Made by a program: the position numbers and the translations under genes
In this document: positions 3,961-25,143 of the stretch, one piece after another
Numbering within the stretch: the stretch's first letter is position 1
Layout of the letters: each line of letters starts with the position of its first letter
Source: an uncultured bacterium
Lineage (GTDB): Bacteria > Hydrothermota > Hydrothermia > UBA1063 > CAJXJZ01
Length of the DNA: 64,000 nucleotides
Direction of reading: 5' to 3'
Assembly: GCA_913055745.1 (NCBI GenBank)
Contig: CAJXJZ010000003.1
Coordinates: 6,664 to 70,663, forward strand
Notes under the pieces: generated by a model
What the model was told of the DNA's origin: nothing
Database searches by the model: none
Seen by the model: only the letters and a program-made list of their open reading frames with translations

Positions 3961-5271
3961 TTACCTTTTTATCTTCCTCTCTCTTGACGATGGGATACCC
4001 AATTTCTTTCTCTTTTGAGTTACAGTCCTTCTCTTTATCTTTATCCCTCTTTGGTTCAAAATGGCCGTAATTTCCTCATCAGAAAGTGGATATGCCTTAT
4101 CCTCACTATCAATAATTTCTTTAATAATATCTAAAAGTTCGTCCTGAGAAAGAGTGAAATTTGTACCCCTTACTCCATGTTTAAAGAAAAAACGCAATGC
4201 GAATACGCCTCTTGGAGTATCTGCATATTTCTCTTTAAGTATGCGATTGAGTGTAGAAGGTGGGATATCAAGTTCTAAGGCGGCATCCTTCTGACTCACA
4301 GGGACAGGAAAGGACACCTTTCCTAAAAGAAAATCCTCCTGCTTTTGTGCTATAAATTCGGCAATCCTCCGTATATATTCCTTCCTTTTAATTAATGCCT
4401 CTCGGAATTTTTGTGCGCTTTTGTATTTTTTAGCAAGGAACCTTTTTATATCCTTAGGCGTCTTATCTGACTTCAACATCTCTTCATACACAGGGTTTAT
4501 ACTTAGACTCGTAAAGGGTGATTCATAGAGTTCAACCTGTATTTTTTGGTTAACTATCCTAAATATTATCTCAGGGATAATATATGATGTGGATGACTGC
4601 TCATAAAGGCTGAAAGGATAAGGCAAGAGACTTATTTTAAGATTATGGGTAATCTCTCTTATTTTATCTTCATCAAGTTTTTTGGAAAAATCTTCAAATT
4701 CTTCTTCAGAAATCAGTTTCCTTGATAAGAGTTGAAAGAGCAAAAACTCTGTTATTGAAAGGCTACCTGAGCCCTTAGGGTCAAACTCCATAAAACACCG
4801 CCTTATCTTTCTTACATATTCTAATTCTTCCTTCGTTTTTTCTGCAAGTTCTTCCTCGCTTATACTAAGAAATCCCTTGCCATCAAGATTGTCTAATATT
4901 GCCATACCTATTTTCCTATCTTTTTCATCTGTAAACTCGGCACTCGCCTGCACCTCAAGCCTATCCCAAACAGAAACAGGAGGACTCTCAAGGACCTCCT
5001 CAAAGGATGGCGTATCCTCCTCATATCCTCCCATAGGATGGGCATTGAGTTCTGGTTCATAGGGAAAGTCTTGTGCCTTCTTTAACATCCTATCAATACT
5101 TTTTTCTAAACTATCTGGAAGATCAAGCATAGGGTTTGCCTCTACTTCATTGATAACAGCCTCTTCAAGTTCAAGCGCAGGAAGTTCAAGTATTTTAGCC
5201 TCCAAAATTAGAAGTGGAATGGGCTGAACTCTTAGTTCAAGCCTTTTTTGCAATCTGTGTTCAAGTTTCAT
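3961..5271 (-). CDS. rpoN: RNA polymerase sigma-54 factor (divergent)
   Basis: Region I/ELEE..NPML, core-binding region, TPRGVF..FF, PLSDE, RpoN-box-like RRTVTQKR; lies downstream of lptB as usual. Confidence 0.9.
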   Translation of the reverse strand: MKLEHRLQKRLELRVQPIPLLILEAKILELPALELEEAVINEVEANPMLDLPDSLEKSIDRMLKKAQDFPYEPELNAHPMGGYEEDTPSFEEVLESPPVSVWDRLEVQASAEFTDEKDRKIGMAILDNLDGKGFLSISEEELAEKTKEELEYVRKIRRCFMEFDPKGSGSLSITEFLLFQLLSRKLISEEEFEDFSKKLDEDKIREITHNLKISLLPYPFSLYEQSSTSYIIPEIIFRIVNQKIQVELYESPFTSLSINPVYEEMLKSDKTPKDIKRFLAKKYKSAQKFREALIKRKEYIRRIAEFIAQKQEDFLLGKVSFPVPVSQKDAALELDIPPSTLNRILKEKYADTPRGVFALRFFFKHGVRGTNFTLSQDELLDIIKEIIDSEDKAYPLSDEEITAILNQRGIKIKRRTVTQKRKKLGIPSSRERKIKR

Positions 5272-5990
5272 AGATTAAACCTCCTACCCAAATAGATTTT
5301 CCTTGCCTCTTCATTGTTTATCAACTCCTCTGCTGTCCCATGCAACAAAATCTTACCGTCATATATTATATAGGCTCTATCACAGACAGCAAGAGTTTCC
5401 CTAACATTATGATCAGTAATGAGGACGCCAATACCCATACCCTTGAGTTGAACGATAATATCCTGTATTTCTTCACGGGTCTTTGGATCTATGCCAGTAA
5501 AGGGTTCATCAAGTAGTAAGATACGAGGTTCTATGGCAAGCGCTCTTGCTACTTCAAGCCTCCTTCTTTCTCCGCCTGATAGGGTAAGGGCAAGTGAATC
5601 CTTTATATGGTAAATTTTGAGCAATTTCAGGAGTTCTTCTGTTTTCTTTCTTCTCTTTTCTTTATCCACTTTTCTCATCTCAAGCACTGCATCAATATTC
5701 TCCCATACTTTGAGCCTTCTAAAAACAGAACTCTCCTGTGGCAAATAACTAATACCAAGACGAGCCCTTTTATACATGGGATAAGAGGATATGTCTATAT
5801 TATCAAAATATACTTTTCCAGCATTAGGCTTTACTGCCCCCATAACCATATAAAATGTAGTGGTTTTTCCTGCACCATTTGGCCCTAACAGCCCTACCAC
5901 CTCACCCTCACTAACGCTTATGTCAATACCTTTTACAACAACCCTTTTCTTGTATATCTTCTTAAGGCCCTCTGCACGAAGTTCACTCAT
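5268..5990 (-). CDS. lptB: LPS export ABC transporter ATP-binding protein
   Basis: GPNGAGKTT, LSGGERRR, LLDEPFTGIDP, TDHNVRET, YLG C-terminus. Confidence 0.95.
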   Translation of the reverse strand: MSELRAEGLKKIYKKRVVVKGIDISVSEGEVVGLLGPNGAGKTTTFYMVMGAVKPNAGKVYFDNIDISSYPMYKRARLGISYLPQESSVFRRLKVWENIDAVLEMRKVDKEKRRKKTEELLKLLKIYHIKDSLALTLSGGERRRLEVARALAIEPRILLLDEPFTGIDPKTREEIQDIIVQLKGMGIGVLITDHNVRETLAVCDRAYIIYDGKILLHGTAEELINNEEARKIYLGRRFNL

Positions 5991-11213: not shown

Positions 11214-13278
11214 CCCCCTCCCCTTTTTACTTCTTATTATCTTTTTTTTATTCACATCCAGACTTTTGGGCAATGATGTTTACTTTGGTGCAAAACATCT
11301 TAAGTATCTTGCAGATGAGAAACTTGTCATCTTACAGGACAGTGCCTGGATAAGGGATAAAGAAAATAGCCTGCTTGCAGATAGCATCTTATATTTTCAA
11401 GACCTTGATCTTATAAAAGGTTATGGCAATGCTGTTTTAATTACAGGAAAAGATAGTTTCATAGGCGATTCCCTTTACTACAACACAAAACTCAAAACAG
11501 GGCATGCCTTTTCAGGATATACCATAAAGGAAAAAGGCAAAATATGGGGCAGCATGGCTTATAAAGACTCCCTTGACAATATCTATATAAAACATGGATT
11601 TTACACCACATGCCTTAAGGATACCCCAGACTATTTTTTCCAGGCACAGTATATAAAGGTAGTAAAAAGAGAGATGGCTATTGCAAAGCCTGTTATTCTT
11701 AGAGTACACAATGTTCCCATTATGGCTGTCCCATTTTGGATGTTTCCCGTTAAGGAGGGAAGAAAGAGCGGATTTTTAACTCCAAGCGTAGGATTTAACT
11801 CCATAAGTGGCAAATACCTTAGGAACCTCGCCTATTATTTAGTGATAAATAACTATATGGACCTTACCACATCCATGGATATTGTAGAAAATGTAGGTAT
11901 AAGGGGAAATATAGACTTTTTGTATAAACTCTACAAACACTTTAGCGGAGAAGTTAAGTACTCCCGTGCAGAAAACCTATGGCAAAGAAGTTCAGAATGG
12001 TCTCTTGCAGGGTGGCACAGACATAATCTACCGTATCACACAACCCTTCAGGCAAAAATAGACTATGTATCCAATTATAACTATTACAATGAGTATTCTG
12101 AGACAAAAGTAGAATGGCTTAAAAGAGAACTTCACAGTTATCTCACCATCCAACGGTCATCCCTTCCCATACCATTTACTTTCACCATAGACGATAGGAT
12201 ACAACCTGATAAAAAAAATAGACAGAGTTTAATACCATCAATACAATACTCACTCCCTCCTATTTCTTTCTTAAATATGAGGGTAACGGGTGGGATTTTA
12301 AGAAAGCGCAGCGAAGATTCTACAAAAATACTCACAAACACAGGTGCAAGAAACAGTATCTCCTTGGGACTTAATTATACCCTTTTACATTACTTGCGTT
12401 TTAACACAGGGTTAAACTCAAATTTAAACATACTACCAAAAGACACCGCAAATAGTGCCTTTACATTACAAAAAAGTCTCAGGTTATCCCAGGGATTTTC
12501 AACAACGCTTTATGGTTTTTCTATCTTTGGACTTCCTTTTATGGGCATTCAAAAATTTATGCATATATTATCAACGAGTGTATCATTCTCTTTAGTGCCC
12601 TCTGTTAAAAACGATACAGTCATTTTTCAGTATGGTTCATTTTACACGCCAGGAAAATATCTTACATTGAGTCTACAAAATACCTTTTGGGCAAAGGCAT
12701 CATCAAAAAAACTACACCTTCTTTCTCTCAACCTGAGCGCAAACTATAATTTTAAAGAAAAGAAATGGGACAATGTTCCCATAAACTTTACTCTATCAGA
12801 AAAACTCCCGCTTAAAATAAGGGGCAATATACAATACAATACAGAAAATAAGACCCTTGAAAATCCTTCTATTTTTATAACATCATCATTTAAACTCCCA
12901 CTTTTTAGAACAAGTTTTGTAAACAGTTTACCAGGGGATACAGACTCAACAAAAATAAGCAAAGAGAGGAACTTTTTATCTGCCAATTTCAACTATACCA
13001 TTACAAAAAACCAGGTTTTTACATCTCAAACCATTGCCTTAAATGGCAGATATAGGATATCTCCAAGTATTAAAGGGGGATTTTCTATATCCTATGACCT
13101 ATCCCATGGGAAGTATCTTGCAAGGTCTCTTTCCCTGAAAAAAGACCTTCACTGCTGGGAACTTGATTTTTCTTATAACAAATACGGCAACATATGGGAT
13201 TATAACTTCAGGGTATTTATTAAAAAGATACCTGACATTAAATTAGACAAGGGCTTATTAAGAAGCCTTTTACCCTAA
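11164..13278 (+). CDS. lptD: LPS-assembly protein LptD-like outer-membrane protein
   Basis: N-terminal OstA domain, YTTC, P..PFWMFP...RKSGFL.P, beta-barrel with C-terminal DLHCW motif. Start uncertain (GTG 11164 or TTG 11194). Confidence 0.75.
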   Translation: MRSKSLKRLILRGERHNPLPFLLLIIFFLFTSRLLGNDVYFGAKHLKYLADEKLVILQDSAWIRDKENSLLADSILYFQDLDLIKGYGNAVLITGKDSFIGDSLYYNTKLKTGHAFSGYTIKEKGKIWGSMAYKDSLDNIYIKHGFYTTCLKDTPDYFFQAQYIKVVKREMAIAKPVILRVHNVPIMAVPFWMFPVKEGRKSGFLTPSVGFNSISGKYLRNLAYYLVINNYMDLTTSMDIVENVGIRGNIDFLYKLYKHFSGEVKYSRAENLWQRSSEWSLAGWHRHNLPYHTTLQAKIDYVSNYNYYNEYSETKVEWLKRELHSYLTIQRSSLPIPFTFTIDDRIQPDKKNRQSLIPSIQYSLPPISFLNMRVTGGILRKRSEDSTKILTNTGARNSISLGLNYTLLHYLRFNTGLNSNLNILPKDTANSAFTLQKSLRLSQGFSTTLYGFSIFGLPFMGIQKFMHILSTSVSFSLVPSVKNDTVIFQYGSFYTPGKYLTLSLQNTFWAKASSKKLHLLSLNLSANYNFKEKKWDNVPINFTLSEKLPLKIRGNIQYNTENKTLENPSIFITSSFKLPLFRTSFVNSLPGDTDSTKISKERNFLSANFNYTITKNQVFTSQTIALNGRYRISPSIKGGFSISYDLSHGKYLARSLSLKKDLHCWELDFSYNKYGNIWDYNFRVFIKKIPDIKLDKGLLRSLLP

Positions 13279-13366
13279 AAGCATACAAATACACATTATA
13301 ACAAAAACCCGCATGCAAGCATTAACAAGGCTCCCACAAAACTCATTGTATTTTTTACATTAACTA

Positions 13367-13395
13367 TTGACAATACCCAATCTGTGTCTTATAAT
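13367..13395 (+). promoter_or_regulatory. Perfect-consensus sigma70 promoter for kinase operon
   Basis: TTGACA(13367-72)-17-TATAAT(13390-95), ATG 8 nt downstream. Confidence 0.75.
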
Positions 13396-13403
13396 ATTAC
13401 ATA

Positions 13404-16124
13404 ATGCAAATAATAGGAGGCTATAACTATTTGAGAGAGATAGAAGAAACCAATGTTTCGCAAGTCATTCTTGTTGAAAAAAATGGTATAAAATATGTAC
13501 TCAAAAACTCACTTTTGAAAGATTACAACTATTTAATAGATAGGGAGTATATCTTTCTTAAATACCTGCAAGATTTGGGCATTACCCCACGACCTTTTTC
13601 CATTGGGAAAATTGGAAATAGAACATACCTTGTAAGGGAATACCTTGAGGGAAGTATGCTAAAAGACTTTTTAAAGGATAAGTCATCTTGGGAAATTACT
13701 GAATATTTTAGAAAAGTTCTGTATCTAATGTTCAAATTACATACACATGGAATAGTTTTAAGAGATATATCCCCTACCAACTTTTTTATACGGAATGATA
13801 ACCTATATATAATTGATCTGGGTATGGCTACTCATTGCACTGAGAAACCCTCATTAGAGGGTACCCCCTCCTATCTTGCACCAGAGAGTATCGTAGATGA
13901 AACATTTTCCTTTAAAAGTGATCTTTACTCTGTTGGTGTGATGTTTTACGAGTTTTACAAAAAAAGGCCCGCATATAAATTTTCCAATCTTGATGACCTG
14001 TTTATACAGCAAAGCCACGGCCTGCCACCCTTTGACGGTATACCACAAAAACCTGCCCAACTCCTTAAGAGACTACTTTCTTTTGAGCCTGAGAATAGGC
14101 CAACGACATTAGATTCTATTAAAATACTTGACGGGTCTCCACTTTTGGAGCATTTGGTTGTTGATAAGAGTTTTCCTATCATTTTTTCACGGGAAATGGG
14201 CCGTATCATTAATAGAATTAAAAAAACAGAGGCAAAAGTTCTAAACATTTTCAGCGCACGATACCCAGAAGGTTTTTTCTCTGTCATCTTTAAAGAATTG
14301 AGCTTAAGACTTGAACTTGAAGGATTTAAAACATCTTTAAACTCTTTTGAGCCATCAAAAGATATTATCCTTTTGGATTATGAGCATTTAGGAGCGATAA
14401 AAAACTCTGTACATAGATTGAATCAGCATCAAAGAGTCATTATATTCAGTTTAAAGCCCTTAAATATTGGTAACATTAATATAGATTACATGAATTTAAG
14501 TATCACGAACTTAGGCACTTACGAACAAGTAGAAGAGGTAATGCCTATATATCCCAAAATTGATAATTCAGGATCCATTATACCATCTTATGCACAATAT
14601 AATTTAAGTATACTTGCATACATTATACCAGAAGACTTTCCAAGAGAAAAAAATCTACTTAAAACTATAAGTCGCTATTTGAATGCTGAGTATAATGACC
14701 TCATTGATATCTTATCTTCTTTTCGCCTCGCTGTGCCCAAAAGCATTATCTACTATACACTTATTAAAAACAAATCGGACAAACACGCAAAGATAAAGGA
14801 ACATGCATATTTTTCCATACTCTCTTTTATGGATCACTTCGGCTTTATTGACATAAAAGAAAACCATATTATACTTTTACCTGCTTTTCATTCGTTTGTT
14901 AGGAGTAAAAATATGAAACATAAAGCCAATATAGATGTATCAAACAATATCTATGACCATCTTGAATATTTATTGCAAAATACCTCAAAAATAGAACATA
15001 TTACCACGAAACTCAAAGAACTCCTAAAAGGAAACAAGATACCCCCCACACACGCAAGAATTTTCTTAGATGCCCTTTATGATGCAGTAGAGTCACCTTC
15101 TCTTAAAATAGATGTAATAAAGGCAGAGATCTCTCTCGGCCTTTTGAGTAATGTCAGAAAAAAATGGCAAGAACTATTGACAGTGGTCTTACAAGATGCC
15201 AAAAAGATTACATTTGACTATATAAGGCTCTCAATAAGTCTTGGAATATTCCATCAAACTGTAGAGTTCTTACGCGAACGAGAGGACCCTCAATCCAAAA
15301 CCTTATTACTCTATGCATACGCTCTCTATTCAAAGTTTGACCTTTTTTTGGACATACTGAAAAATAACAAGGTGGACAGAGAAAATCCCTATTACCACCT
15401 GGCAATGGGTTTTTACCAAATGGCCTACAAAAAAAAGCCCAATTTAGCAAAACAATATGCAATAACCGCATCAGAACTTGCACATGAAGACCCTCATGTA
15501 ATAATGGTATCAACATACATCTATGGTACATCCGTGCTTGAAACAGGGCAAGTAGAAAAAGGCAAAAACATACTTGAATCAATAAATACACAGGAGAATT
15601 ATGGCATAGAATCCCTACTTGCAAATTTCCAATTAGGCTATATTTACTACACCTCAAAAGAATTTCTCAAAGCCATTTATTACTTTGAATATTCTTACCA
15701 TATGGCCAAAGAATTTCATAGTATATCTTTATCTGTACAGGCTGCATTTTACCTTTCACACATTTATTATCATATGAACAAACTTGATGTTGCAGAATAC
15801 TATATGGATTATGCGTACAAATATCAAAGGCTTTTAACCAAAGAACAAAAGGATTACCTTTTAAAAAACTATGCAGACCTTGCAATTTATCTTAAAAAAC
15901 ATGATAAGATCAAGGCACTCACAGAATTAATGAAAAAAAATCCTGGTATAGAAGGATTACTCAATCCTATCACCCTTGCCAATATATACTATCTTGCAGG
16001 GGAAAAAGAGAAATTGAAAACCCTACTACATAGGATAAAAAATGAGGAGGAAAACATTTTAGTTAAAACATTTTTAGAAATGATAGAAAAAACTGAAAAT
16101 AATAAGGAGGTGCAACATGGGTGA
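13404..16124 (+). CDS. Ser/Thr protein kinase-like domain + degenerate central domain + TPR repeats
   Basis: VLK, LRDISPTN, DLG, GTPSYLAPE, SDLYSVG, R of subdomain XI (PENRP); helical TPR-like C-terminal half. Confidence 0.75.
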   Translation: MQIIGGYNYLREIEETNVSQVILVEKNGIKYVLKNSLLKDYNYLIDREYIFLKYLQDLGITPRPFSIGKIGNRTYLVREYLEGSMLKDFLKDKSSWEITEYFRKVLYLMFKLHTHGIVLRDISPTNFFIRNDNLYIIDLGMATHCTEKPSLEGTPSYLAPESIVDETFSFKSDLYSVGVMFYEFYKKRPAYKFSNLDDLFIQQSHGLPPFDGIPQKPAQLLKRLLSFEPENRPTTLDSIKILDGSPLLEHLVVDKSFPIIFSREMGRIINRIKKTEAKVLNIFSARYPEGFFSVIFKELSLRLELEGFKTSLNSFEPSKDIILLDYEHLGAIKNSVHRLNQHQRVIIFSLKPLNIGNINIDYMNLSITNLGTYEQVEEVMPIYPKIDNSGSIIPSYAQYNLSILAYIIPEDFPREKNLLKTISRYLNAEYNDLIDILSSFRLAVPKSIIYYTLIKNKSDKHAKIKEHAYFSILSFMDHFGFIDIKENHIILLPAFHSFVRSKNMKHKANIDVSNNIYDHLEYLLQNTSKIEHITTKLKELLKGNKIPPTHARIFLDALYDAVESPSLKIDVIKAEISLGLLSNVRKKWQELLTVVLQDAKKITFDYIRLSISLGIFHQTVEFLREREDPQSKTLLLYAYALYSKFDLFLDILKNNKVDRENPYYHLAMGFYQMAYKKKPNLAKQYAITASELAHEDPHVIMVSTYIYGTSVLETGQVEKGKNILESINTQENYGIESLLANFQLGYIYYTSKEFLKAIYYFEYSYHMAKEFHSISLSVQAAFYLSHIYYHMNKLDVAEYYMDYAYKYQRLLTKEQKDYLLKNYADLAIYLKKHDKIKALTELMKKNPGIEGLLNPITLANIYYLAGEKEKLKTLLHRIKNEEENILVKTFLEMIEKTENNKEVQHG

Positions 16125-17967
16125 TATAGAACACCTAAAGAAGTATCCAAAGTTATTCCTTGAATACCTCATAAATGAGGGTGAGTATGCAAAGGCCATT
16201 GAAGTGGCCCGAGAACTCTTTGAGAGTTTGAAGGACAGTCCAAAGGACCTCTTGGATGTATATGTCATGTATCTATCACTGCAAGGGAAAACAGAACTAC
16301 CTAAGGATGAATTTTCAAAGGTCCTTGATGAGGCACTTAGGCTCTCAGAGGAATTAGGACATAAAGAGCACAGAAAAACACTACTAAAAATAAAGAGGAG
16401 TACAGCTATTATAGACATTCCAAAGGACACTTCACAAGAAGATAGATATGCTAAAGCCTTAAAGAAGATAGCAGAACTTCAAGAGTTATCCCTCTCTGAT
16501 ACAAACTACTATAAGAAGATCCTTGAAATAGCCATAGAAACGCTCTCTGCAGAAAGGGGTGCATTATTCATCATGACAAATGGAAGATTGAGAAAAAGGG
16601 CGGCAATAAACATGGAAGACCTTGAAGTGAAAAAGGCAAAATCCATATCAAACTCCATACTCCTTGAGGTAGAGCGAAAAAAATCCACACTCATTTTAGA
16701 AGATGCACAGAAGGACCCAAGGTTCAAAAGGGCACATTCTGTCATGTTTAACAAAATACGCTCAGTTATTGCAACACCACTTATTCATGAGGATAATGTT
16801 GTCGGTGTCCTTTATGTTGATACAACAACAAAGAGCAAGACCTTCCTGGTTCAAGACAAGGAGTTTATAGAAACATTATCTAAGATACTCGCTTCTCATA
16901 TTACCTTTAATCTGAACCATCAGGTACTTTCAACAAACGTCCGATTACTAAAGGCAAGGCTAAAAGAAGAAGAGGACCTTGTCATTGTCTACAAAAGTAA
17001 GGTGATGCAGGATATTATCTCTAAGATTAGACAGGTGGCACCGACTGATACAATAATTCTCATAGAGGGGGAAACAGGCACGGGAAAGGGACTTTTGGCA
17101 AGATACATTCATTCTATAAGCAAAAGGTCATCAAAACCATTTGTTCAAGTTGACCTATCTTCCATACCCTACACGCTCATAGAATCCGAACTCTTTGGCT
17201 ATAAAAAAGGCGCATTCACAGGTGCATTAGAAGATACAAAAGGTCTCTTAGAGGTGGCTGACGGTGGCACAGTGTTCTTTGATGAAATATCAAACACAAC
17301 CCTAACCACACAGGCAAAACTCTTAACCCTGCTTGAGGAGAAAAAATTCAGGAGAATTGGTGGAAAAGATGAACTGAAATTTGCGGCAAGGTCAATTTTT
17401 GCGAGCAATAGACCACTTGAACAACTTGTATCTGAAAACAGGGTAAGAAAGGACTTTTATTACAGGATAAGTGAGTTTGTTGTTCAATTACCACCATTAA
17501 GAGAGAGGCCTGAAGATATTATACCTATTGCCGAGTATTTTGCCAAAAAGTTTGGAGCAGAATTCGGTAAAGAGTTCAAACAAATAGACGAAGAAGCAAA
17601 GGAGTTTCTCCTCTCATACCCATGGCCAGGCAATATCAGAGAACTAAGAAATGTAATAAGACAGGCGATGATATTCAGTCCTGACGGTGAAATAAACATC
17701 CAGACCATTTCTGAAAACCTCCTGGGCAAAAATAAAACCCAGGCAATGAAACTAAAAGGGAAAGACCTTAAAGATTTTCTTCAAGACAAGGAAAGGGAAA
17801 TAATGATTGAGGCTTTGAGAGAGACCCATGGCAATATCCTTGCAACAGCGGAACTACTAAATACCAACAGAATGCGCATTTACAGAATCCTCAAAAAGTA
17901 CAATATAGACCCCAATGAATTTAAAATAAAAGGCAAAATTAAACGCAAACTCAGAACCAAAGAGTAA
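16117..17967 (+). CDS. GAF-domain sigma54-dependent enhancer-binding protein (Fis-family HTH)
   Basis: GAF (AERGALF...SVIATPL...GVLYVD), GETGTGKG, ESELFGYKKGAFTGA, FFDEI, RKDFYYRI, WPGNIREL, C-terminal HTH; own SD AAGGAGG. Confidence 0.92.
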   Translation: MGDIEHLKKYPKLFLEYLINEGEYAKAIEVARELFESLKDSPKDLLDVYVMYLSLQGKTELPKDEFSKVLDEALRLSEELGHKEHRKTLLKIKRSTAIIDIPKDTSQEDRYAKALKKIAELQELSLSDTNYYKKILEIAIETLSAERGALFIMTNGRLRKRAAINMEDLEVKKAKSISNSILLEVERKKSTLILEDAQKDPRFKRAHSVMFNKIRSVIATPLIHEDNVVGVLYVDTTTKSKTFLVQDKEFIETLSKILASHITFNLNHQVLSTNVRLLKARLKEEEDLVIVYKSKVMQDIISKIRQVAPTDTIILIEGETGTGKGLLARYIHSISKRSSKPFVQVDLSSIPYTLIESELFGYKKGAFTGALEDTKGLLEVADGGTVFFDEISNTTLTTQAKLLTLLEEKKFRRIGGKDELKFAARSIFASNRPLEQLVSENRVRKDFYYRISEFVVQLPPLRERPEDIIPIAEYFAKKFGAEFGKEFKQIDEEAKEFLLSYPWPGNIRELRNVIRQAMIFSPDGEINIQTISENLLGKNKTQAMKLKGKDLKDFLQDKEREIMIEALRETHGNILATAELLNTNRMRIYRILKKYNIDPNEFKIKGKIKRKLRTKE

Positions 17968-17985
17968 GTCATCATCTTATCTAAT

Positions 17986-18019
17986 TAAGTGCACGGAATG
18001 TAACAATTCCGTGCACTTA
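17986..18019. repeat. 14-bp perfect inverted repeat (candidate bEBP upstream activator site and/or terminator)
   Basis: TAAGTGCACGGAAT-gtaaca-ATTCCGTGCACTTA. Confidence 0.8.
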
Positions 18020-18083
18020 TAGTTTTGTTACAGAAATAGTACTCCATATTCTAAGAGTTTCAAGGTAATCTATTTACCCACTT

Positions 18084-18100
18084 TTGGCATATTTATTGCA
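18084..18100 (+). promoter_or_regulatory. sigma54 -24/-12 promoter
   Basis: TTGGCATATTTATTGCA: GG 18086-87, N10, GC 18098-99; 30 nt upstream of HD-GYP ATG with SD AGGAGG. Confidence 0.75.
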
Positions 18101-18129
18101 TATTATTTAGTGAAAAAAGGAGGCGTAAA

Positions 18130-19176
18130 ATGTTGGAGGCTAAAGATATAAGAGAAATAACAGACAACAATGCAGAACTTGCAGCAGTGCTAAAACTTGG
18201 TGAGGCAATCGATATCAAAGAGTTTAGTGAAGAGAAGAGAAAAATAAAAATCGCCCTTCTATCAAGTGAAAGCGGAAAAGAACATCTTATACACTACATG
18301 ATAGGCAAGGAAAATATTACTATAAAGAGTTTTCCTGCATCAAGGGATAGTTTAAGTGAAATACTGAAATTCTATCCTGATATACTCATAGTGGATACCG
18401 ATACAGTCAGCGATGCACTTTTGAAGAACTTACTATACAACCTCCACCTTGCTTACGACTATACTCCGATTATATTGGCAGGGCGAAATAAGCAGAGGCT
18501 TTACCACTTCTGGCAGTACGGTGTATTTGATATCATAGACCTAAATCTTCAAGATAAAAAGGCAGACAATATTATAGATACTGCCATACGTCTTAAAAAT
18601 ACCCTAACGGTCAATTTTGAAGAAAACATGCTTGATTACCTCGCACGCATCTCTGACGCCAAAAGCATTGAAGATGTCGGGCACTCCAAAAGAGTGGCAA
18701 TATATGCCCTTAACCTTGCAAGAGCGAGTGGAATAAATGATGAACAGTTTTTAAGAAACCTTTATCTCGGCGCAAAGTATCACGATATAGGTAAAATAGC
18801 CATCCCAGAAAGCATAACAAGAAAAAGAGGGGCTTTGTACAAAAATGAGTATGAAATAGTTAAACGCCATACTATCATAGGTTACTATATAGTAACGCAC
18901 TACGGTATGCTAAGTGAAGAGGTTGGGGAGATAGTGAAGCATCATCACGAATGGTTCAATGGAACAGGGTATCCAGATGAACTTAAGGGGAATGAAATAC
19001 CACTCGGGGCCAGGATTGTAGCCATCGCGGATGCCTTTGATGCAATAACAAGCACAAGGCCTTATAGGGAGAAGAAAACTTTTGATTACGCCATTAATGA
19101 ACTTCTGAAGTTTAAAGGCATACAATTTGATCCTGATCTTGTAGATAACTTTGTAAGGCTTATAACGATGTCATAA
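18130..19176 (+). CDS. HD-GYP cyclic dinucleotide phosphodiesterase with atypical receiver-like N-terminus
   Basis: GHSKRV, YHDIGK, HT..G, HHHEWFNGTGYPDELKG, IVAIADAFDA, RPY, GIQFDP. Confidence 0.88.
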   Translation: MLEAKDIREITDNNAELAAVLKLGEAIDIKEFSEEKRKIKIALLSSESGKEHLIHYMIGKENITIKSFPASRDSLSEILKFYPDILIVDTDTVSDALLKNLLYNLHLAYDYTPIILAGRNKQRLYHFWQYGVFDIIDLNLQDKKADNIIDTAIRLKNTLTVNFEENMLDYLARISDAKSIEDVGHSKRVAIYALNLARASGINDEQFLRNLYLGAKYHDIGKIAIPESITRKRGALYKNEYEIVKRHTIIGYYIVTHYGMLSEEVGEIVKHHHEWFNGTGYPDELKGNEIPLGARIVAIADAFDAITSTRPYREKKTFDYAINELLKFKGIQFDPDLVDNFVRLITMS

Positions 19177-20997
19177 AAGATGAATGAGCTGGCGAAGTTT
19201 TTTGCATGATACTTTACCAAATCTTACGGCATAATATTCTTTTACAAATTGTAGGGCTATTTTATCATTACTTCTTAAGGCAAACTCCATTAAAGTCTCA
19301 CCTTTTTTCATAGAAAACCCGTTTTTCTTCATATATCGCAGGAATTTTTTAATTGCCTTCTTTGGAAAAGGTACAAAAAATACATTGTAAATGAAATATG
19401 CCATTATAATGGCAAAAGCAATACCCAAAAGAAGATAAATGAATAACCTTTTTATACTATTACTTCTAAGCCTTTGGAAATACGGCATTACTTTTAATGC
19501 CATATGCATCTGATCCCTGTAACTATACTCAACTATACGGGTAAACCACAGATACTGGAGAAAATCATAGTATTCTCTTAAATGAGATATAAATTTCTTT
19601 TTCTTATTTATGGGTGGTGTTGGATCGTACCTTATCCATCTTCCATTCTTGAACACCTCTGCCCAGGCATGGGCATGCCTTTCCCTTACAACAAAATATC
19701 CACCCATGGCATTGTACTCATCCGACAAAAAACCTGCGACCATTCTTGCCCTATATCCAAGAAGGCGTGCAAGAAGAACAAACGAAGTCGCAAACTCTGT
19801 ACATTCCCCGCTCCTTTGGTATTTTAAGAATTCCAGGATAGGTAATATCGTATCATGCAAAGGAGTAAACCTACCGTATGAATGATTTTTTCTCAAATAC
19901 CGTATGAGTGAGAAGAGCGTATCATCTGAAATCTTTATTCTTTTAGTTATGTTTTTTAGTTGATTACGAATGTTTTTGGGAACATAAAGGTATTGTGATG
20001 TCACTGTAGTATCAAGGGACATAACAGGCCTTGAGGATGCAAACACCCTGTAGGACATCTTTTTTGGCCATTTTTCTATTTTTACTTCCATTAGATTTTT
20101 ATAAAGCACAAATTGCCCCCCTTCCCATGAAAGGAGCACAGGATAATCTACAAGTGGAATGTATGTAAATCTCAATGTGGGATAGATTATATACATTATA
20201 GAACTGGAATATGGATTCTTAGATATAAGGACCTTGTTTTTTAGGCCCTTACCCCATTTTTCCTCCTCTGTCCACTTCTCTCCATCAAAACGCATAAAAA
20301 CTCTTGAACGCAGGTATAAGGCATTGTGTCTCTTTTCCATGGGTTTTACCCGTAAAACTACCCTATTTGAAAGTTGCTCTTTGCTAAAACTCCCTATGCT
20401 CAGGTATTCAAAGTCTCCACCCACAGGTTTAGCATTTGCACCAAAAAACATGTATGGGTTCCTTGGTAGAAAGAAAAACAACATAAGGGAAAATAAGGTA
20501 ACGGACAATAAACTCGCAAGGATGTATCTTGTAGAATACTTGCTTGGTGTAATGTTTTTAGGAAGGTACCTTAAAAAGAGGTATAAGCCTAACAAAATGG
20601 AAAAAACTACAAATAGAAGGATATACCACATGGAATATAGGAAAACCGCAGACATGGAGAAGGTAAGAAAACTCAAAAGTGCTACATGGTCATAATCCTT
20701 TTCTTCAAAGGATACAAAGAGTTTTATGCATAATAGGCCCAAAAGATAGTATAATGCCATTACAAAAACATCCTGTAAGAAGAAAAGTGGGATAAAAACA
20801 AGGGTCATGAGCCCGGCTATTATATTCCCCTCATACTTTTTCAACACAATCTTTCCCTTTTTTCCAAGAAGATAACTCATAAATACCAAAAAAAGGAAAA
20901 GAACAATAGATACACCCCTTGCAAAAACACCAGATATAACAGCAACTGCACTCAATAGGTATGCTGTATTATAACGAAGTGGATTTGTTTTGTTCAT
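19171..20997 (-). CDS. TgpA-like membrane transglutaminase-domain protein (DUF3488 + transglutaminase)
   Basis: Multi-TM N-terminus, FFFLPR, catalytic triad GECTEFA / HAHAWAE / YDPTP. Confidence 0.85.
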   Translation of the reverse strand: MNKTNPLRYNTAYLLSAVAVISGVFARGVSIVLFLFLVFMSYLLGKKGKIVLKKYEGNIIAGLMTLVFIPLFFLQDVFVMALYYLLGLLCIKLFVSFEEKDYDHVALLSFLTFSMSAVFLYSMWYILLFVVFSILLGLYLFLRYLPKNITPSKYSTRYILASLLSVTLFSLMLFFFLPRNPYMFFGANAKPVGGDFEYLSIGSFSKEQLSNRVVLRVKPMEKRHNALYLRSRVFMRFDGEKWTEEEKWGKGLKNKVLISKNPYSSSIMYIIYPTLRFTYIPLVDYPVLLSWEGGQFVLYKNLMEVKIEKWPKKMSYRVFASSRPVMSLDTTVTSQYLYVPKNIRNQLKNITKRIKISDDTLFSLIRYLRKNHSYGRFTPLHDTILPILEFLKYQRSGECTEFATSFVLLARLLGYRARMVAGFLSDEYNAMGGYFVVRERHAHAWAEVFKNGRWIRYDPTPPINKKKKFISHLREYYDFLQYLWFTRIVEYSYRDQMHMALKVMPYFQRLRSNSIKRLFIYLLLGIAFAIIMAYFIYNVFFVPFPKKAIKKFLRYMKKNGFSMKKGETLMEFALRSNDKIALQFVKEYYAVRFGKVSCKKLRQLIHLL

Positions 20998-21872
20998 AAA
21001 AGCGCAAGTTTTCTTAAAATGCCCAGTTCATGCACACTACCAGTGGATGGAGCCACATAAAACCTGTTATCCACCAAAAGTCCTACACTTTTCCCTTTTT
21101 CTATTTCTCTATGGATTAAAGAGGCAACGATATCAATCTCATCATCATCAGGATGTTCTTTTAAATGGAAAACAACACTATCTTTTTCCATCGTAGAAAA
21201 CTTTTTTACCTGTAATTCCTTATAGGATTTTTTCCAATGAATATGATACAGACTTTCACCACTTCTATACCTTGCAAGTCCAAGGAACTCACCATCAACC
21301 CCCCTCTTTTCAACGCTGTTATCACCGAGTGCAAATTTTTGGTAATACCCATTTTTGTCAACCTTCCTATTTATATCTGGCAATACAAGAACATCCATAT
21401 TTAACCTCATCTCTCTTCCTCTCTTGGCAAAGCCAAATGGATAGAGGGAATAGACAGTGATGTTATCTATTTTCTGAATACCCCTTTTTTTGCCAACATA
21501 CGGAAGTTTGATTGTTATCTCATTATTTTTTATTTCTGGCACAAAAGTGCAGCCATCCTTAGTACAAAAATAGAGAGAAAAACCAGGGATCCTGCTTTTA
21601 GAGACTTTTATCAGTATATAGCCTTCTTTCCTCTTATAAATTATGTCTTGTGTTTCAGGGGCGACCTTGAGGAATAAAATATTCATAGTACTCAATATGC
21701 CAGAGGCAAAGAGCAGCACCAAAAGATAGGCAAGAATCATATAGAGAAGATTATTACCAGAATTTATTGTTGCTATACCAAAAAATAGGGTAAATACTGA
21801 AAAAAACTTGCCTAAGGATGTAATGTTTACCCTATCAAAGGGGCGGTTCAACAGAACTTTTAATCTCATCAA
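20994..21872 (-). CDS. DUF58 domain protein
   Basis: AT.NSGNNLLY, SLYPFGF, EFLGLARYRSGES.YHIHWK; lies between moxR and transglutaminase. Confidence 0.8.
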   Translation of the reverse strand: MMRLKVLLNRPFDRVNITSLGKFFSVFTLFFGIATINSGNNLLYMILAYLLVLLFASGILSTMNILFLKVAPETQDIIYKRKEGYILIKVSKSRIPGFSLYFCTKDGCTFVPEIKNNEITIKLPYVGKKRGIQKIDNITVYSLYPFGFAKRGREMRLNMDVLVLPDINRKVDKNGYYQKFALGDNSVEKRGVDGEFLGLARYRSGESLYHIHWKKSYKELQVKKFSTMEKDSVVFHLKEHPDDDEIDIVASLIHREIEKGKSVGLLVDNRFYVAPSTGSVHELGILRKLALL

Positions 21873-22761
21873 GCAATTTTTCTCTATCCTGCAATATCAT
21901 CTGTAAGCCAATACGATGGATAACAAGGGGCTTAAAAGAGGCCTTTACATCGTCTGGAACAACATAATCCCTTCCCTCTATATACGCAATGGATTTTGCA
22001 ATCTCTACAAGATGCAATAAAGCACGTGTTGAGAGTTCGGAAGAAAACACAGGATGGGATCTTACAGCACGACCCAAAGCAAGGATATAGTCCTCAATAT
22101 CTCTTGAAACTTTCACTTTTTTTGCTTCATCTATCATCTTAAATAGTTCTTCTTTATTAAAAACAGGAGAAAGGCTATCTATCTTTTTTCTAATATCACC
22201 TTCTCTCAATAGTTGCCTCTCTATTTCCTCAGGAACACGGTTTATCTGTATCCTGAGCATGAACCTATCTAATTGTGAAGCAGGTAGAGGGAATGTGCCA
22301 TAGGATTCTACAGGATTCTGCGTTGCTATTACAAAAAACAATGGACTTAAAGGGTATGTGTGTCCTTCAACAGTTACATGCCTTTCTTCCATTGCCTCTA
22401 ATAGTGCACTTTGCGTCCTGGGATTCATCCTATTTATCTCATCCACCAATAGCACATCACAAAATACAGGACCTTTTAAGAACACCATTTCACCATTTTC
22501 ACCTTGTGGTATAAATGCGCCTATGATATCAGCAGGAAGCATATCGCTTGTACCTTGAATCCTTTTAAATTCAAGGCCCAAAAGCTTTGCAAAGGCAAGT
22601 GAAAGGGTTGTCTTCCCCATCCCTGGCAATCCCTCCAAAAGCACATGTCCCCTTGAGAGGAATGCAGCAAAGAGGAGTTTTATATTGCCCTCATGTCCCT
22701 TTATTACTTTTGAAATAGATTTAAAAAAAAGCTCTATCTTAGATTTATACACAGTTCTCAC
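21835..22761 (-). CDS. moxR: MoxR-family AAA+ ATPase
   Basis: GHVLLEGLPGMGKT, DEINR..P.TQSALLEAMEE, ATQNP.E..GTFPLP..QLDRF. Confidence 0.92.
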   Translation of the reverse strand: MRTVYKSKIELFFKSISKVIKGHEGNIKLLFAAFLSRGHVLLEGLPGMGKTTLSLAFAKLLGLEFKRIQGTSDMLPADIIGAFIPQGENGEMVFLKGPVFCDVLLVDEINRMNPRTQSALLEAMEERHVTVEGHTYPLSPLFFVIATQNPVESYGTFPLPASQLDRFMLRIQINRVPEEIERQLLREGDIRKKIDSLSPVFNKEELFKMIDEAKKVKVSRDIEDYILALGRAVRSHPVFSSELSTRALLHLVEIAKSIAYIEGRDYVVPDDVKASFKPLVIHRIGLQMILQDREKLLDEIKSSVEPPL

Positions 22762-23714
22762 TGCTTTATGAGAACAGTTCTATTCCCACCTTCCTCTTTT
22801 GCCTCTTTTATTCCTTCAAGTAATTTTTCAACGAGTGCATCAGGCTCTAAATAAACAGTGGGATAGCAAATTGCAGAAACTGATACAGTTATATTGAGAC
22901 GAGGTCCAAACTCAATCTCAAAAGTACCAGACATAACGCGCAATCTAAACCCCTCTGCAACCTGATAGATATTCTGCATGCCCGTTTCTGGCAAAATAAC
23001 AGCAAATTCATCGCCCCCAAACCTGGCAACTATATCTGTTCTTCTAAAATGACTTCTTGCAAGTTCCGCAAACTTGCGAAGGAGCATATCGCAGGTTCTG
23101 TGACCATAAGTTTCATTTACTTTTTTCAAATCGTCAATATCAATCAGCATAAGAGAGAACTTTCTTGAGTACCTCTTTGCCCTTTTAAACTCCTCATCCA
23201 ACCTCTGCCAGAAATAAGTGGAAGAAGGGAGATTCGTAAGTTTATCCAAAAGTGCACTATCTGATAATTCTAATTCTTTTAGGCGATATGCTACAATAAG
23301 ACCCAAAAAAGGCAAAATCTCTTCTATCTTTACTTTAAGTTCCTCTACTTTATCATGGGAATAAAAGACCATATACATAATACCTATAACTCTACCGGAA
23401 AAAACAATGGGTACAACCTCTATACCTTTTACACCATCATCAATAATATCACTATGACTAAAAATATCTTTTTTAAAATTTGCAATAAAAAGAGGCTTAT
23501 CATAAGAAAGATAATAGGCAGAGAGTACATCCCTTTTTTCTTCAAGTACTGGGCCTTTGCCCTCACTATCATATATGGTTTTAAAAATCTCACTTTCTTC
23601 ATGAACAGGGACCCTTAAAATGAGCCGCCTTGCCCCAAAACTCTCCATGAGAAAGGTCATAATATCCCCAAAGTCGTACCTTTCTAATACCTTTTTACCC
23701 AAACCCTCTATCAT
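22758..23714 (-). CDS. GAF-like + GGDEF diguanylate cyclase
   Basis: D.LT.L, DIDDLK.VN..YGH, RRTD I-site, RFGGDEF. Start moved to ATG 23714 (GGAGG SD). Confidence 0.88.
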   Translation of the reverse strand: MIEGLGKKVLERYDFGDIMTFLMESFGARRLILRVPVHEESEIFKTIYDSEGKGPVLEEKRDVLSAYYLSYDKPLFIANFKKDIFSHSDIIDDGVKGIEVVPIVFSGRVIGIMYMVFYSHDKVEELKVKIEEILPFLGLIVAYRLKELELSDSALLDKLTNLPSSTYFWQRLDEEFKRAKRYSRKFSLMLIDIDDLKKVNETYGHRTCDMLLRKFAELARSHFRRTDIVARFGGDEFAVILPETGMQNIYQVAEGFRLRVMSGTFEIEFGPRLNITVSVSAICYPTVYLEPDALVEKLLEGIKEAKEEGGNRTVLIKQ

Positions 23715-23715
23715 A

Positions 23716-25143
23716 TTACCCCTCCTCCAAATACCTCTCAAGTAGTGCTTTTACCTCTTTGGGATTTGCTCTTCCCTTTGTTTTCTTCATGACAAGACCA
23801 ATAAGAGCTCCAAGCACTCCCTTTTTCCCACTTCTGTACTTTTGGACAAGGTCTTGACCCTCTGAAAGTACCTCTTTTATTACATCTTCAAGAACAAATT
23901 CTACTTCATCTTTACTGAATGCATCTATGAGTTGAGACAACTTCCCTTTGCCTTCAAGATACCTCTTTATTATTAGTATCATCTGATTCCTATTGATCTT
24001 ACCTTCAGATTTTAAGTTCAAAAGTCTTCCAAACTCTTCTGGTTTTAATGGAAGATGCTCAAAATCATAATCCGTTTTCCTTACAATACCTGAAAGTTCA
24101 TTTATAAGAACCTTTGCCACATCATGGGGTCTATTAAACACAGAAACCACGTGGTCAAAATAATCAGCCAAATGTCTATCCCTCATTATTGTTAAAATAT
24201 CTGATTCAGATATTCCCATCTTGCGATATCTTCTTTCTCTTTCTTCAGGCATTTCAGGAAGATTGCTTTCAACTTCTTTTATAAAATCTGAAGTTAATAC
24301 AAGTTCTGGAAGATCTGGCTCTGGGAAAAACCGATAGTCATGAGAGGCCTCTTTTTTCCTCATACTTCTAGTCTCTTTTTTAAATTCATCAAAGAGGCGT
24401 GTTTCCATTTCTATCGGAATACCTTTTTGAATACAATCTATGTGTCTTTTAAACTCAACCTCAAGGCCATCCTCAACTGCCCTTATGGAATTTAGGTTTT
24501 TGAGTTCAACCCTTACACCGTATTCTTTATCTCCTTTTCTTCTAACTGAGATATTGGCATCCACCCTCATTTCTCCCTTCTCCATATCACATCCAGATGC
24601 GCCAATGTATGAAACCATATTCCTTAGTTTTTCAAGGAACAACCTCGCCTCCTTAGGTGAGCGGATATCAGGATAGGTGGTAACCTCCAAAAGTGGAATC
24701 CCACTCCTATTATAATCAAGCAATACATCACCCGTCTTGACATGTATAGATCGGGCTGCCTCTTCTTCAATATTCATTCTTTCTATACGAATACGCCTTT
24801 TTATGCCAGAAGTTTCTATATCTACATAACCATCTGTCCCAAGTGATGCCTCATATTGGGTGATCTGGTATCCCTTTGGCAAATCAGGATAAAAATAGTT
24901 TTTTCTATAAAACCTTGAATGATGATGGATTTTACCGTTTAATATCTTTATTATTGCAATGCCCTTTTTTATCGCCTCCATGTTCAATGAAGGAAGGGCT
25001 CCTGGCAAACCCAGACACACAGGACAGACATTGGTATTAGGAACTGCGTCATGCTCTGACTTGCATCTACAAAAGAGTTTTGTCCTGGTATTCAGTTGAA
25101 AATGTATTTCAAGCCCTATAACAGGCTCAAACATATCACTCAT
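23716..25143 (-). CDS. gatB: Asp/Glu-tRNA amidotransferase subunit B
   Basis: VIGLEIH.QL.T.TKLFC, RKNYFYPDLPKGYQITQ, DYNRSGIPLLE, R.DANIS, YRFFPEPDL. Confidence 0.96.
   Translation of the reverse strand: MSDMFEPVIGLEIHFQLNTRTKLFCRCKSEHDAVPNTNVCPVCLGLPGALPSLNMEAIKKGIAIIKILNGKIHHHSRFYRKNYFYPDLPKGYQITQYEASLGTDGYVDIETSGIKRRIRIERMNIEEEAARSIHVKTGDVLLDYNRSGIPLLEVTTYPDIRSPKEARLFLEKLRNMVSYIGASGCDMEKGEMRVDANISVRRKGDKEYGVRVELKNLNSIRAVEDGLEVEFKRHIDCIQKGIPIEMETRLFDEFKKETRSMRKKEASHDYRFFPEPDLPELVLTSDFIKEVESNLPEMPEERERRYRKMGISESDILTIMRDRHLADYFDHVVSVFNRPHDVAKVLINELSGIVRKTDYDFEHLPLKPEEFGRLLNLKSEGKINRNQMILIIKRYLEGKGKLSQLIDAFSKDEVEFVLEDVIKEVLSEGQDLVQKYRSGKKGVLGALIGLVMKKTKGRANPKEVKALLERYLEEG

Follow-up and report, generated by a model that had tools for sequence, protein, structure and literature searches.

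Sigma-54 activators, or bacterial enhancer-binding proteins (bEBPs), classically have their activity controlled by phosphorylation of a REC domain, by ligand-binding domains, or by partner proteins acting in trans, such as NifL and PspA. Other trans-regulated pairs besides NifL-NifA are PspA-PspF, HrpV-HrpS and FleN-FleQ, and in Mycobacterium tuberculosis the protein PknK, in which a Hanks kinase precedes a NOD and a TPR sensor of MalT type, acts in trans to regulate a transcription factor. In the literature searched, no experimentally studied case was found of a eukaryote-like Ser/Thr kinase serving as the dedicated partner of a bEBP. The locus described here lies in a 64-kb stretch of contig CAJXJZ010000003.1 (the window, in whose coordinates all positions are given) and consists of three co-directional open reading frames (ORFs) encoding, in order, a 906-aa protein with a Hanks-type Ser/Thr kinase domain (hereafter the partner), a 616-aa bEBP and a 348-aa HD-GYP phosphodiesterase (Table 1). 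It is a real, conserved and uncharacterised variant of trans-regulated sigma-54 activation. On balance it is probably a sigma-54 regulatory unit complete in itself and based on a split STAND-kinase/activator, in which the bEBP most likely turns on the adjacent HD-GYP gene, and it suggests a direct link between Ser/Thr signalling and the levels of cyclic dinucleotides, in a phylum for which there are metagenomes only.

The likeness to NifL-NifA lies in a REC-less GAF-AAA+-helix-turn-helix (HTH) activator whose regulator gene is placed directly upstream in the same operon. NifL, however, is a PAS/histidine-kinase-like flavoprotein and the NifL-NifA target is nif, whereas the window combines a Hanks kinase-STAND-TPR regulator with a phosphodiesterase target. 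In architecture the partner resembles the PknK/MalT-PH0952 STAND class, PH0952 (6mfv) being the best structural match of its non-kinase part, but it has no P-loop, and the protein it presumably controls is a sigma-54 activator, not an AraC/LuxR-type factor. An earlier note, made from the letters of the DNA alone, had described a consensus sigma-70 promoter, a 906-aa kinase-TPR gene, an activator gene overlapping it by 8 nt and carrying the sigma-54-activator motifs, and a -24/-12 promoter ahead of the HD-GYP gene; each of these was recovered by ORF mapping, promoter scanning, Pfam or direct reading of the translation, and the domain assignments of both proteins are supported by Pfam, hhalign, AlphaFold2 (AF2) and Foldseek. 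The note's statement that the locus has no histidine kinase and its activator no REC domain also stands, as no match to HisKA, HATPase_c or Response_reg was found by Pfam in the three proteins or their annotated neighbours, and two-component His-Asp control of the bEBP was rejected on these grounds.

The bEBP consists of a helical TPR-like N-domain (residues 1-96), a GAF domain (about 133-262), an AAA+ domain (290-456) followed by its lid, and a Fis-type HTH (556-595). As read in the translation (GETGTGKG, GAFTGA, VFFDE, FRRIGG, GNIRELRN), it carries all the ATPase and sigma-54 contact motifs of sigma-54 activators. The first three of these motifs are invariant in eight orthologues, and the HTH, HGNILA(T/A)AELLNTNRMR(I/M)YRI, is invariant across the clade. 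Full-length orthologues, all of 613-617 aa, were found at 99, 85, 80, 78, 77, 77, 75 and 53% identity. Foldseek matches the AAA+ domain to NtrC1 and the GAF domain to those of NifA and Nlh1, and the best-scoring NCBIfam model is nifA (TIGR01817) at 308.7 bits, below its equivalog cutoff of 528.85, with no nif genes in the window. The N-domain is modelled as six helices forming three helical hairpins (predicted local distance difference test, pLDDT, 81-90), and a metagenome scan with it returned two loci only, both of lineages already found. Within the GAF domain an invariant DTTTKSK segment (V/L-D-T-T-T-K/R-S-K, residues 235-242) was observed, in place of which the fusion relatives described below carry LDxRxxxxxF; this cluster of Thr and Ser (T236-T238 and S240), a feature of the split clade alone, may be a candidate phospho-acceptor.

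The partner is a Hanks kinase (residues ~1-245) joined to a STAND module without P-loop (NOD/winged helix, ~260-500) and a TPR sensor (~516-902). In its AF2 model (mean pLDDT 70.6) a beta-alpha-beta core is seen together with a winged helix and an extended array of TPRs; this model is matched best by the STAND-TPR protein 6mfv (E 3.5e-9), then by PknB, ULK1 and Aurora, the three kinase-fold matches having TMt values of 0.55-0.62. When 1.84 billion representative proteins were searched by full HMMER with the non-kinase part, no more than three homologues were retrieved at E <1e-10; the partner family is confined to this clade of candidate division WOR-3, to which the metagenome-assembled genomes (MAGs) nearest to the window locus belong. 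Both proteins of the pair are also found joined in larger ones. The 80 best GTDB relatives of the window bEBP include four that are each encoded by one ORF of 1,623-1,876 aa (L001 from WOR-3, 1,623 aa; L027 from Myxococcales, 1,673 aa; L019 from Bacteroidota, 1,683 aa; L005 from Planctomycetota, 1,876 aa), L001 being the top match, and all four carry Pkinase, AAA_16, TPR/TPR_MalT, GAF, Sigma54_activat, AAA_lid_14 and HTH_8 (the last sub-threshold in L027). The bEBP family aligns to the last ~500 residues of these fusions (E 1e-95), and the partner family profile to their N-terminal halves over 807 columns, within the first ~1,000 profile columns (99.95%, E 4.5e-38; hhalign). With the same domain order and homology in both halves, the window pair is a split form of Pkinase-STAND-TPR-GAF-Sigma54-HTH fusion proteins, from which it differs in being two polypeptides, in having neither Walker A nor Gly-rich loop, and in a ~100-aa bEBP N-domain of its own. 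The earlier note had stated that kinase-ATPase-TPR-GAF-sigma54 fusions occur in some lineages; they do, although the 'ATPase' part of the window partner is without a P-loop.

The 8-nt overlap of the two ORFs, together with the existence of fused homologues, could be taken to mean that a single fused gene has been interrupted, whether through a frameshift, an error of sequencing or pseudogenisation. This explanation is effectively refuted. The junction geometry differs by lineage (-16, -8, +2, +3, +10 and +11 nt), and every lineage has a stop, a start and a Shine-Dalgarno sequence belonging to it, so that these are two genuine genes rather than a frameshifted fusion; the bEBP is 613-617 aa long in at least eight independent assemblies; and its ATG is preceded by a Shine-Dalgarno (SD) sequence, AAGGAGGTG, whose GGAGG core lies 6 nt 5' of that ATG within the last kinase codons. 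The C-terminal (K/R)EV of the kinase protein, which encodes this SD, is conserved, and the bEBP is translationally coupled to the kinase gene through it. Every relative found, at bEBP identities between 99 and 53%, has its kinase and bEBP genes side by side and in tight coupling, in keeping with the pairing of a kinase/TPR gene and a REC-less GAF-bEBP that had been pointed out in the window.

The association is not limited to the split clade. Among the same 80 relatives, 30 are similar to the window bEBP into the GAF domain, of which 22 are linked to a kinase (fused or adjacent), five are without one and three lie at a contig end; a kinase is thus fused or adjacent in 22 of the 27 assessable GAF-type relatives, and lies within 6 kb in none of the 50 that match in AAA+/HTH only, which is strong context evidence that this GAF-bEBP subfamily works with Hanks kinases. 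Apart from the fusions, 18 loci from as many species of Ignavibacteriota, Calditrichota and Bacteroidota (L002, L003, L007-L010, L012-L017, L021, L029, L030, L039, L042, L044) have a GAF-bEBP of ~500 aa directly followed by a same-strand kinase gene of 504-551 aa, with a Pkinase-PEGA architecture in all three of the downstream kinases scanned. These operons resemble the window in coupling a Hanks kinase tightly to a closely related GAF-bEBP, but their gene order is reversed and their kinases (~510-550 aa) end in a PEGA domain, with no STAND or TPR part. Kinase-GAF-bEBP links hence span at least six phyla, with fusions in four, bEBP-then-PEGA-kinase operons in three, and Bacteroidota in both groups. 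No description or experimental study of kinase-bEBP fusions or pairs, the bEBP-then-PEGA-kinase operons included, was found in the literature searched. Tentatively, and with more doubt than assurance, Hanks-type Ser/Thr kinases may be proposed as a widespread unrecognised input to sigma-54 transcription, in that a GAF-bEBP subfamily of WOR-3, Ignavibacteriota, Calditrichota, Bacteroidota, Myxococcota and Planctomycetota would be switched directly by Ser/Thr phosphorylation from a fused or coupled kinase, replacing the His-Asp phosphorelay. If this is true, the WOR-3 locus would be a minimal natural circuit of one kinase partner, an activator, a promoter and a second-messenger phosphodiesterase. 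Being compact, conserved, and related to the fusions of four phyla and to the kinase-bEBP operons, it offers a tractable model for the function of the fusions.

The complete arrangement is shared by ten sequence-distinct loci (window, L092, L082, L222, L221, L093, L088, L219, L081, L086), in the order LptD_2, kinase, bEBP and HD-GYP, followed by a convergent block of TgpA, DUF58-like, MoxR, GGDEF and GatB genes. An alignment of the 150-175-nt spacers between bEBP and HD-GYP genes from these loci, each inspected, showed them to be otherwise diverged while keeping four things in 10/10: a hairpin, a T-rich tract, a -24/-12 element and a strong SD. The -24/-12 element of the window, TGGCATATTTATTGCA, with its GG at 18086-7 and GC at 18098-9, is the only exact TGGCAY-N5-TTGCW in the 64 kb (0.10 expected; 9 of 100 shuffles gave at least one), and the eight matches with one mismatch in the window all fall within coding regions. 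In all ten loci a TGGCA-N6-TTG(C/T) lies 44-46 nt 5' of the HD-GYP ATG, with ~120-140 nt separating it from the stop codon of the bEBP gene; in the window it is ~55 nt 3' of the T tract of the hairpin. A gene for sigma-54, rpoN, is found in the window ~9 kb from the bEBP and HD-GYP genes, so that the sigma factor needed by this promoter and by the bEBP is present. The rpoN product also matches TIGR02395 over its full length, at 258.5 bits slightly under the cutoff of 277. It is short (436 aa), and its gene lies directly 3' of an lptB-like ABC ATPase gene.

The hairpin is the inverted repeat that the earlier note had placed between activator and promoter. It is indeed present, with 14 pairs, six of them GC, but it is primarily a strong intrinsic terminator of the kinase-bEBP transcript, as its co-varying stem and T-rich tract indicate. 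It is located directly 3' of the bEBP stop, with folding energies between -16 and -27.5 kcal/mol in nine loci and ~-12 in the tenth, L221, and compensated changes are found in the stem pairs GCACGGAAT/ATTCCGTGC, GCACTGAAG/CTTCAGTGC, GACCCGATG/CATCGGGTC and GCACCGGG/CCCGGTGC, with compensated stems in L081, L088, L219 and L221. A role as a simple protein-binding palindrome was accordingly downgraded, since the stem varies while the bEBP HTH is invariant, making it unlikely that the stem is a sequence read by the bEBP; the repeat may still overlap the enhancer. As the terminator insulates the HD-GYP gene, transcription of the latter depends on the sigma-54 promoter and hence on sigma-54 holoenzyme. 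The sole bases 5' of the -24 that are invariant in the ten loci are TGT(A/C)AC, located in the hairpin loop, and (G/A)TTACA, which follows the T tract. Together they form TGTAAC-N22-GTTACA, the only candidate for an enhancer (upstream activating sequence, UAS), and a tentative one; the window has a single copy where 0.08 would be expected, its half-sites are centred ~109 and ~81 nt 5' of the predicted start at ~18111, and it falls within the segment 17970-18060, to which the activator should bind on the earlier note's reading. In a genome-wide scan for TGTAAC..TTACA..TGGCAY-N5-TTGC the matches listed were dominated by chance.

The HD-GYP product has the HD and GYP motifs (HDIGK, HHEWFNGTGYP), with HD and H-H-E-x-x-N-G-x-G-Y-P invariant. 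It has the HD_5 catalytic domain in common with PmGH, V-cGAP3 and RpfG-type REC-HD-GYP proteins, and differs from them in an Asn replacing the Asp of HHExxDGxGYP throughout the clade (HHEW(F/Y)NGTGYP) and in an N-terminal region of 165 aa for which neither Pfam nor the PDB gave a sequence match. This region is strongly conserved and displays a receiver-like beta-alpha pattern (KIALLS, DILIVDTDT, PIILAG). Among PDB entries the closest are the active enzymes PmGH (4mcw, E 3.5e-33) and V-cGAP3 (5z7c, E 6e-31), and since the former acts on cyclic di-GMP (c-di-GMP) and the latter on cyclic GMP-AMP (cGAMP), the substrate could be either. Full-length orthologues (63-100% identity) occur only in the inner WOR-3 clade and always in the kinase-bEBP context, the next relatives (34-51% identity) being similar in the catalytic half only. 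The GGDEF diguanylate cyclase of the convergent block, 3.6 kb away, has an intact I-site and active site (RRTD-x5-GGDEF) and a GAF-like N-terminus; it is syntenic in every HD-GYP locus with enough flank and may supply the substrate for the HD-GYP enzyme.

A mechanism may be outlined in which the two proteins still act as one machine. The TPR/STAND part of the partner would dock on the bEBP, possibly through the TPR-like N-domain, and sense some cue; the kinase would then phosphorylate Ser/Thr residues in the N-terminal or GAF region of the bEBP, or alternatively the partner would act by binding only. Either route would relieve a GAF-mediated repression of AAA+ ring assembly, and the active ring would bind the terminator-overlapping enhancer 80-110 nt 5' of the start and open the sigma-54 promoter. 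The HD-GYP protein would then lower c-di-GMP (or cGAMP), made for example by the GGDEF cyclase. Relay of the signal by phosphorylation is put forward here as a possibility, held with reserve; relay by binding alone is considered only a little less likely.

A number of observations tell against this picture, beginning with its output. The conserved DNA 5' of the -24 is sufficiently explained by the terminator, and no clear enhancer is defined by it. In the 53%-identity lineage L083-L085 the PGM, LptD_2, kinase and bEBP genes are kept and followed by a convergent LTD-domain gene; the L083 lineage has no HD-GYP gene, TGTAAC hairpin or -24/-12 site within 8 kb, neither a -24/-12 site nor TGTAAC..GTTACA was found in the 17.8 kb examined around the L083 pair, and the convergent cluster with its GGDEF gene is absent beside it. 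Co-occurrence of kinase, bEBP, -24/-12 site and HD-GYP, which the earlier note had proposed to look for in related genomes, therefore holds for the ten inner-clade loci, and in L083-L085 extends to the pair only. Since these lineages keep the pair without HD-GYP, the kinase-bEBP pair is the older conserved core, and the HD-GYP gene, with the GGDEF block, appears to be its output in one subclade. All genomes are, moreover, uncultured MAGs. The L083 lineage, the presence of several bEBPs per WOR-3 genome and the candidate status of the enhancer would also suit an arrangement in which the HD-GYP promoter is served by another bEBP while the neighbouring one regulates genes elsewhere. We consider this unlikely, given the short and steady distance from bEBP stop to promoter in all ten loci and the absence of the HD-GYP orthologue group from any other context. 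bEBPs also usually adjoin their targets, as in D. vulgaris, where 10 of 13 one-component bEBPs adjoin their sigma-54 promoter (PMC4641369). Activation of the HD-GYP gene by the adjacent bEBP is thus retained as the most likely output.

Further points of the same kind concern the input. Interaction and phosphotransfer between the partner and the bEBP are things that we infer from sequence. The first ~100 residues of the bEBP gave no profile alignment with the fusion proteins, and the idea that the split fell inside the TPR array comes solely from the AF2 helical-hairpin model and a weak TPR_14 match. In the kinase the Gly-rich loop GxGxxG is absent, the corresponding stretch I-x-x-T-N-I-S-Q-I-I-L-V having no glycine in any orthologue, and the N-lobe is poorly modelled (pLDDT <50). 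In the STAND module Walker A has been lost, SARYPEGF aligning with the invariant GxxGxGKT of the fusions; the P-loop Lys is missing from every orthologue and the 906-aa protein has no AAA_16 match in Pfam, so that a nucleotide-driven switch is not possible in it. Taken together, the missing Gly-rich loop, the poor N-lobe model and the lost P-loop mean that the partner could be a non-catalytic scaffold, that is an anti- or co-activator in the style of NifL-NifA or PspA-PspF, whether a pseudokinase or a nucleotide or ligand sensor, operating with no phosphotransfer. NifL is itself kinase-like and regulates the GAF-bEBP NifA through complex formation, the NifL-NifA complex structure 9qq6 is among the Foldseek matches of the bEBP, and translational coupling suits a stoichiometric complex. 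Against this, five catalytic residues (K34, E48, D121, N126, D138) and A159-P160 do not vary among five orthologues whose identities are as low as 24-47%, and the activation segment (GT-x-x-Y-x-APE) and C-lobe are conserved across orthologues while the rest of the protein drifts fast. The catalytic loop reads D-I-S-P-x-N, with (L/V/I/N)-D-(I/L)-S-P-x-N across the orthologues, and the DFG motif D-(L/A/I)-G; ULK, PLK4, Aurora and PknB can all be aligned with the domain, and PLK4, an active kinase, likewise has no catalytic-loop Lys. The data fit such a NifL-like partner as well as they fit gating by phosphorylation; we would call it somewhat unlikely as the actual explanation. Were the kinase no more than a scaffold, the locus would still represent a novel kind of bEBP anti- or co-activator.

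The kinase gene is, in addition, the fastest-evolving one of its neighbourhood, changing 2-3 times faster than the bEBP gene and every neighbouring gene, and its rate relative to the bEBP also tells against the proposed relay. In L082, L081 and L086 the identity to the window is 47, 32 and 33% for the kinase protein, compared with 80, 77 and 77% for the bEBP, 84, 82 and 80% for PGM, and 68, 59 and 60% for LptD_2; for the NOD-like part the values are no higher than 26-41%, against 77-80% for the bEBP. These strongly differing rates and the lack of an aligned docking domain would be expected if the two proteins were co-expressed but independent, the kinase having other targets, the adjacency being a relic of fusion, and a GAF ligand alone controlling the bEBP. 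GAF domains of NorR, FhlA and NifA do bind ligands or metals. A relic should break up, however, and the tight coupling persists in all lineages; the recurrence of kinase-GAF-bEBP links across phyla, and their absence from relatives that match in AAA+/HTH only, speaks in the same sense. Independence of the two proteins is accordingly quite improbable, and a functional pairing of partner and bEBP is preferred.

Table 1. Positions of the features discussed, in window coordinates (evidence or particulars in the last column)
Feature	Position	Strand	Evidence
rpoN (sigma-54)	3961..5271	-	Sigma54_CBD 88.9 bits, Sigma54_DBD 132.5 bits (Pfam)
lptB-like ABC ATPase gene	5268-5990	-	
TGTA(A/T)-N15-TTACA repeat, degenerate	13345-13366		
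Sigma-70 promoter TTGACA-17-TATAAT, kinase-bEBP operon	13367..13395	+	12/12 consensus; sole 12/12 match within 13000-19600
-10 to start codon, TATA(A/C)TATTACA(T/C)(A/T)ATG	13390-13406		kept in six lineages
Partner gene: Hanks-type Ser/Thr kinase, P-loop-less STAND NOD/winged helix, TPR array; 906 aa	13404..16124	+	ORF map; Pkinase (PF00069) 96.1 bits, cutoff 31.7; TPR_MalT weak, sub-threshold (Pfam); hhalign; AF2; Foldseek
SD of bEBP, within last kinase codons	16104..16112	+	sequence
bEBP gene: GAF-AAA+-HTH, 616 aa	16117..17967	+	ORF map; GAF 43.5, Sigma54_activat (PF00158) 197 (cutoff 20.2), AAA_lid_14 87, HTH_8 28.9 (cutoff 22) bits (Pfam); motifs; orthologues; AF2; Foldseek
DTTTKSK segment of GAF domain	16819-16842		
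Inverted repeat	17986-18019		6-nt loop
Intrinsic terminator, kinase-bEBP operon	17986..18029	+	14-bp stem, 6-nt loop, T-rich tail; terminator scan
Candidate enhancer (UAS) TGTAAC-N22-GTTACA, tentative	17999..18032	+	overlaps terminator
Sigma-54 promoter TGGCAT-N5-TTGCA	18085..18100	+	
SD of HD-GYP gene, GGAGG	18119-18123		
HD-GYP phosphodiesterase gene, 348 aa	18130..19176	+	ORF map; HD_5 121 bits (cutoff 27.2), HD match
HD-GYP residues 1-165	18130-18630		
Convergent cluster TgpA, DUF58-like, MoxR, GGDEF	19171-23741	-	
GGDEF diguanylate cyclase gene	22758..23741	-	GGDEF 115.6 bits

The promoter of the kinase-bEBP operon is itself conserved, TTGAC-N17-(T/C)ATA(A/C)T and its distance to the ATG being kept in six lineages (L081, L082, L086, L083 and L091 were among the regions compared with the window). 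As the -10 hexamer ends 8 nt 5' of the kinase ATG, the bicistronic mRNA is probably leaderless, and no SD precedes this ATG in the window sequence. Just 5' of the -35 a TGTA(A/T)-N15-TTACA repeat was observed in three lineages (L081 5207-5232, L086 5235-5260, L091 3214-3238), degenerate in the window and resembling the TGTAAC..GTTACA pair 3' of the bEBP gene; it may reflect autoregulation, or chance in AT-rich DNA. Matches to TTTTGTTACA are not enriched in the window (14 against 10.5 expected). An Rfam search of 13200-19400 matched no RNA family, which speaks against a regulatory RNA.

The locus occupies a core part of the chromosome, with genes for a Na/H exchanger, a HAD protein, PGM and LptD_2 upstream. 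An anti-phage defence system was rejected as an explanation, PADLOC giving generic kinase-domain, AAA+ and HD matches only and the locus lying in conserved core synteny (PGM-LptD ... GatB). Downstream and on the opposite strand follow a TgpA transglutaminase, a DUF58-like gene, a MoxR AAA+ ATPase and the GGDEF cyclase, then GatB and NIF3, and farther downstream gyrB, a ribosomal-protein/rpoA cluster, EF-Tu/EF-G and rpoBC. The last gene of the convergent cluster overlaps the HD-GYP stop by 6 nt.

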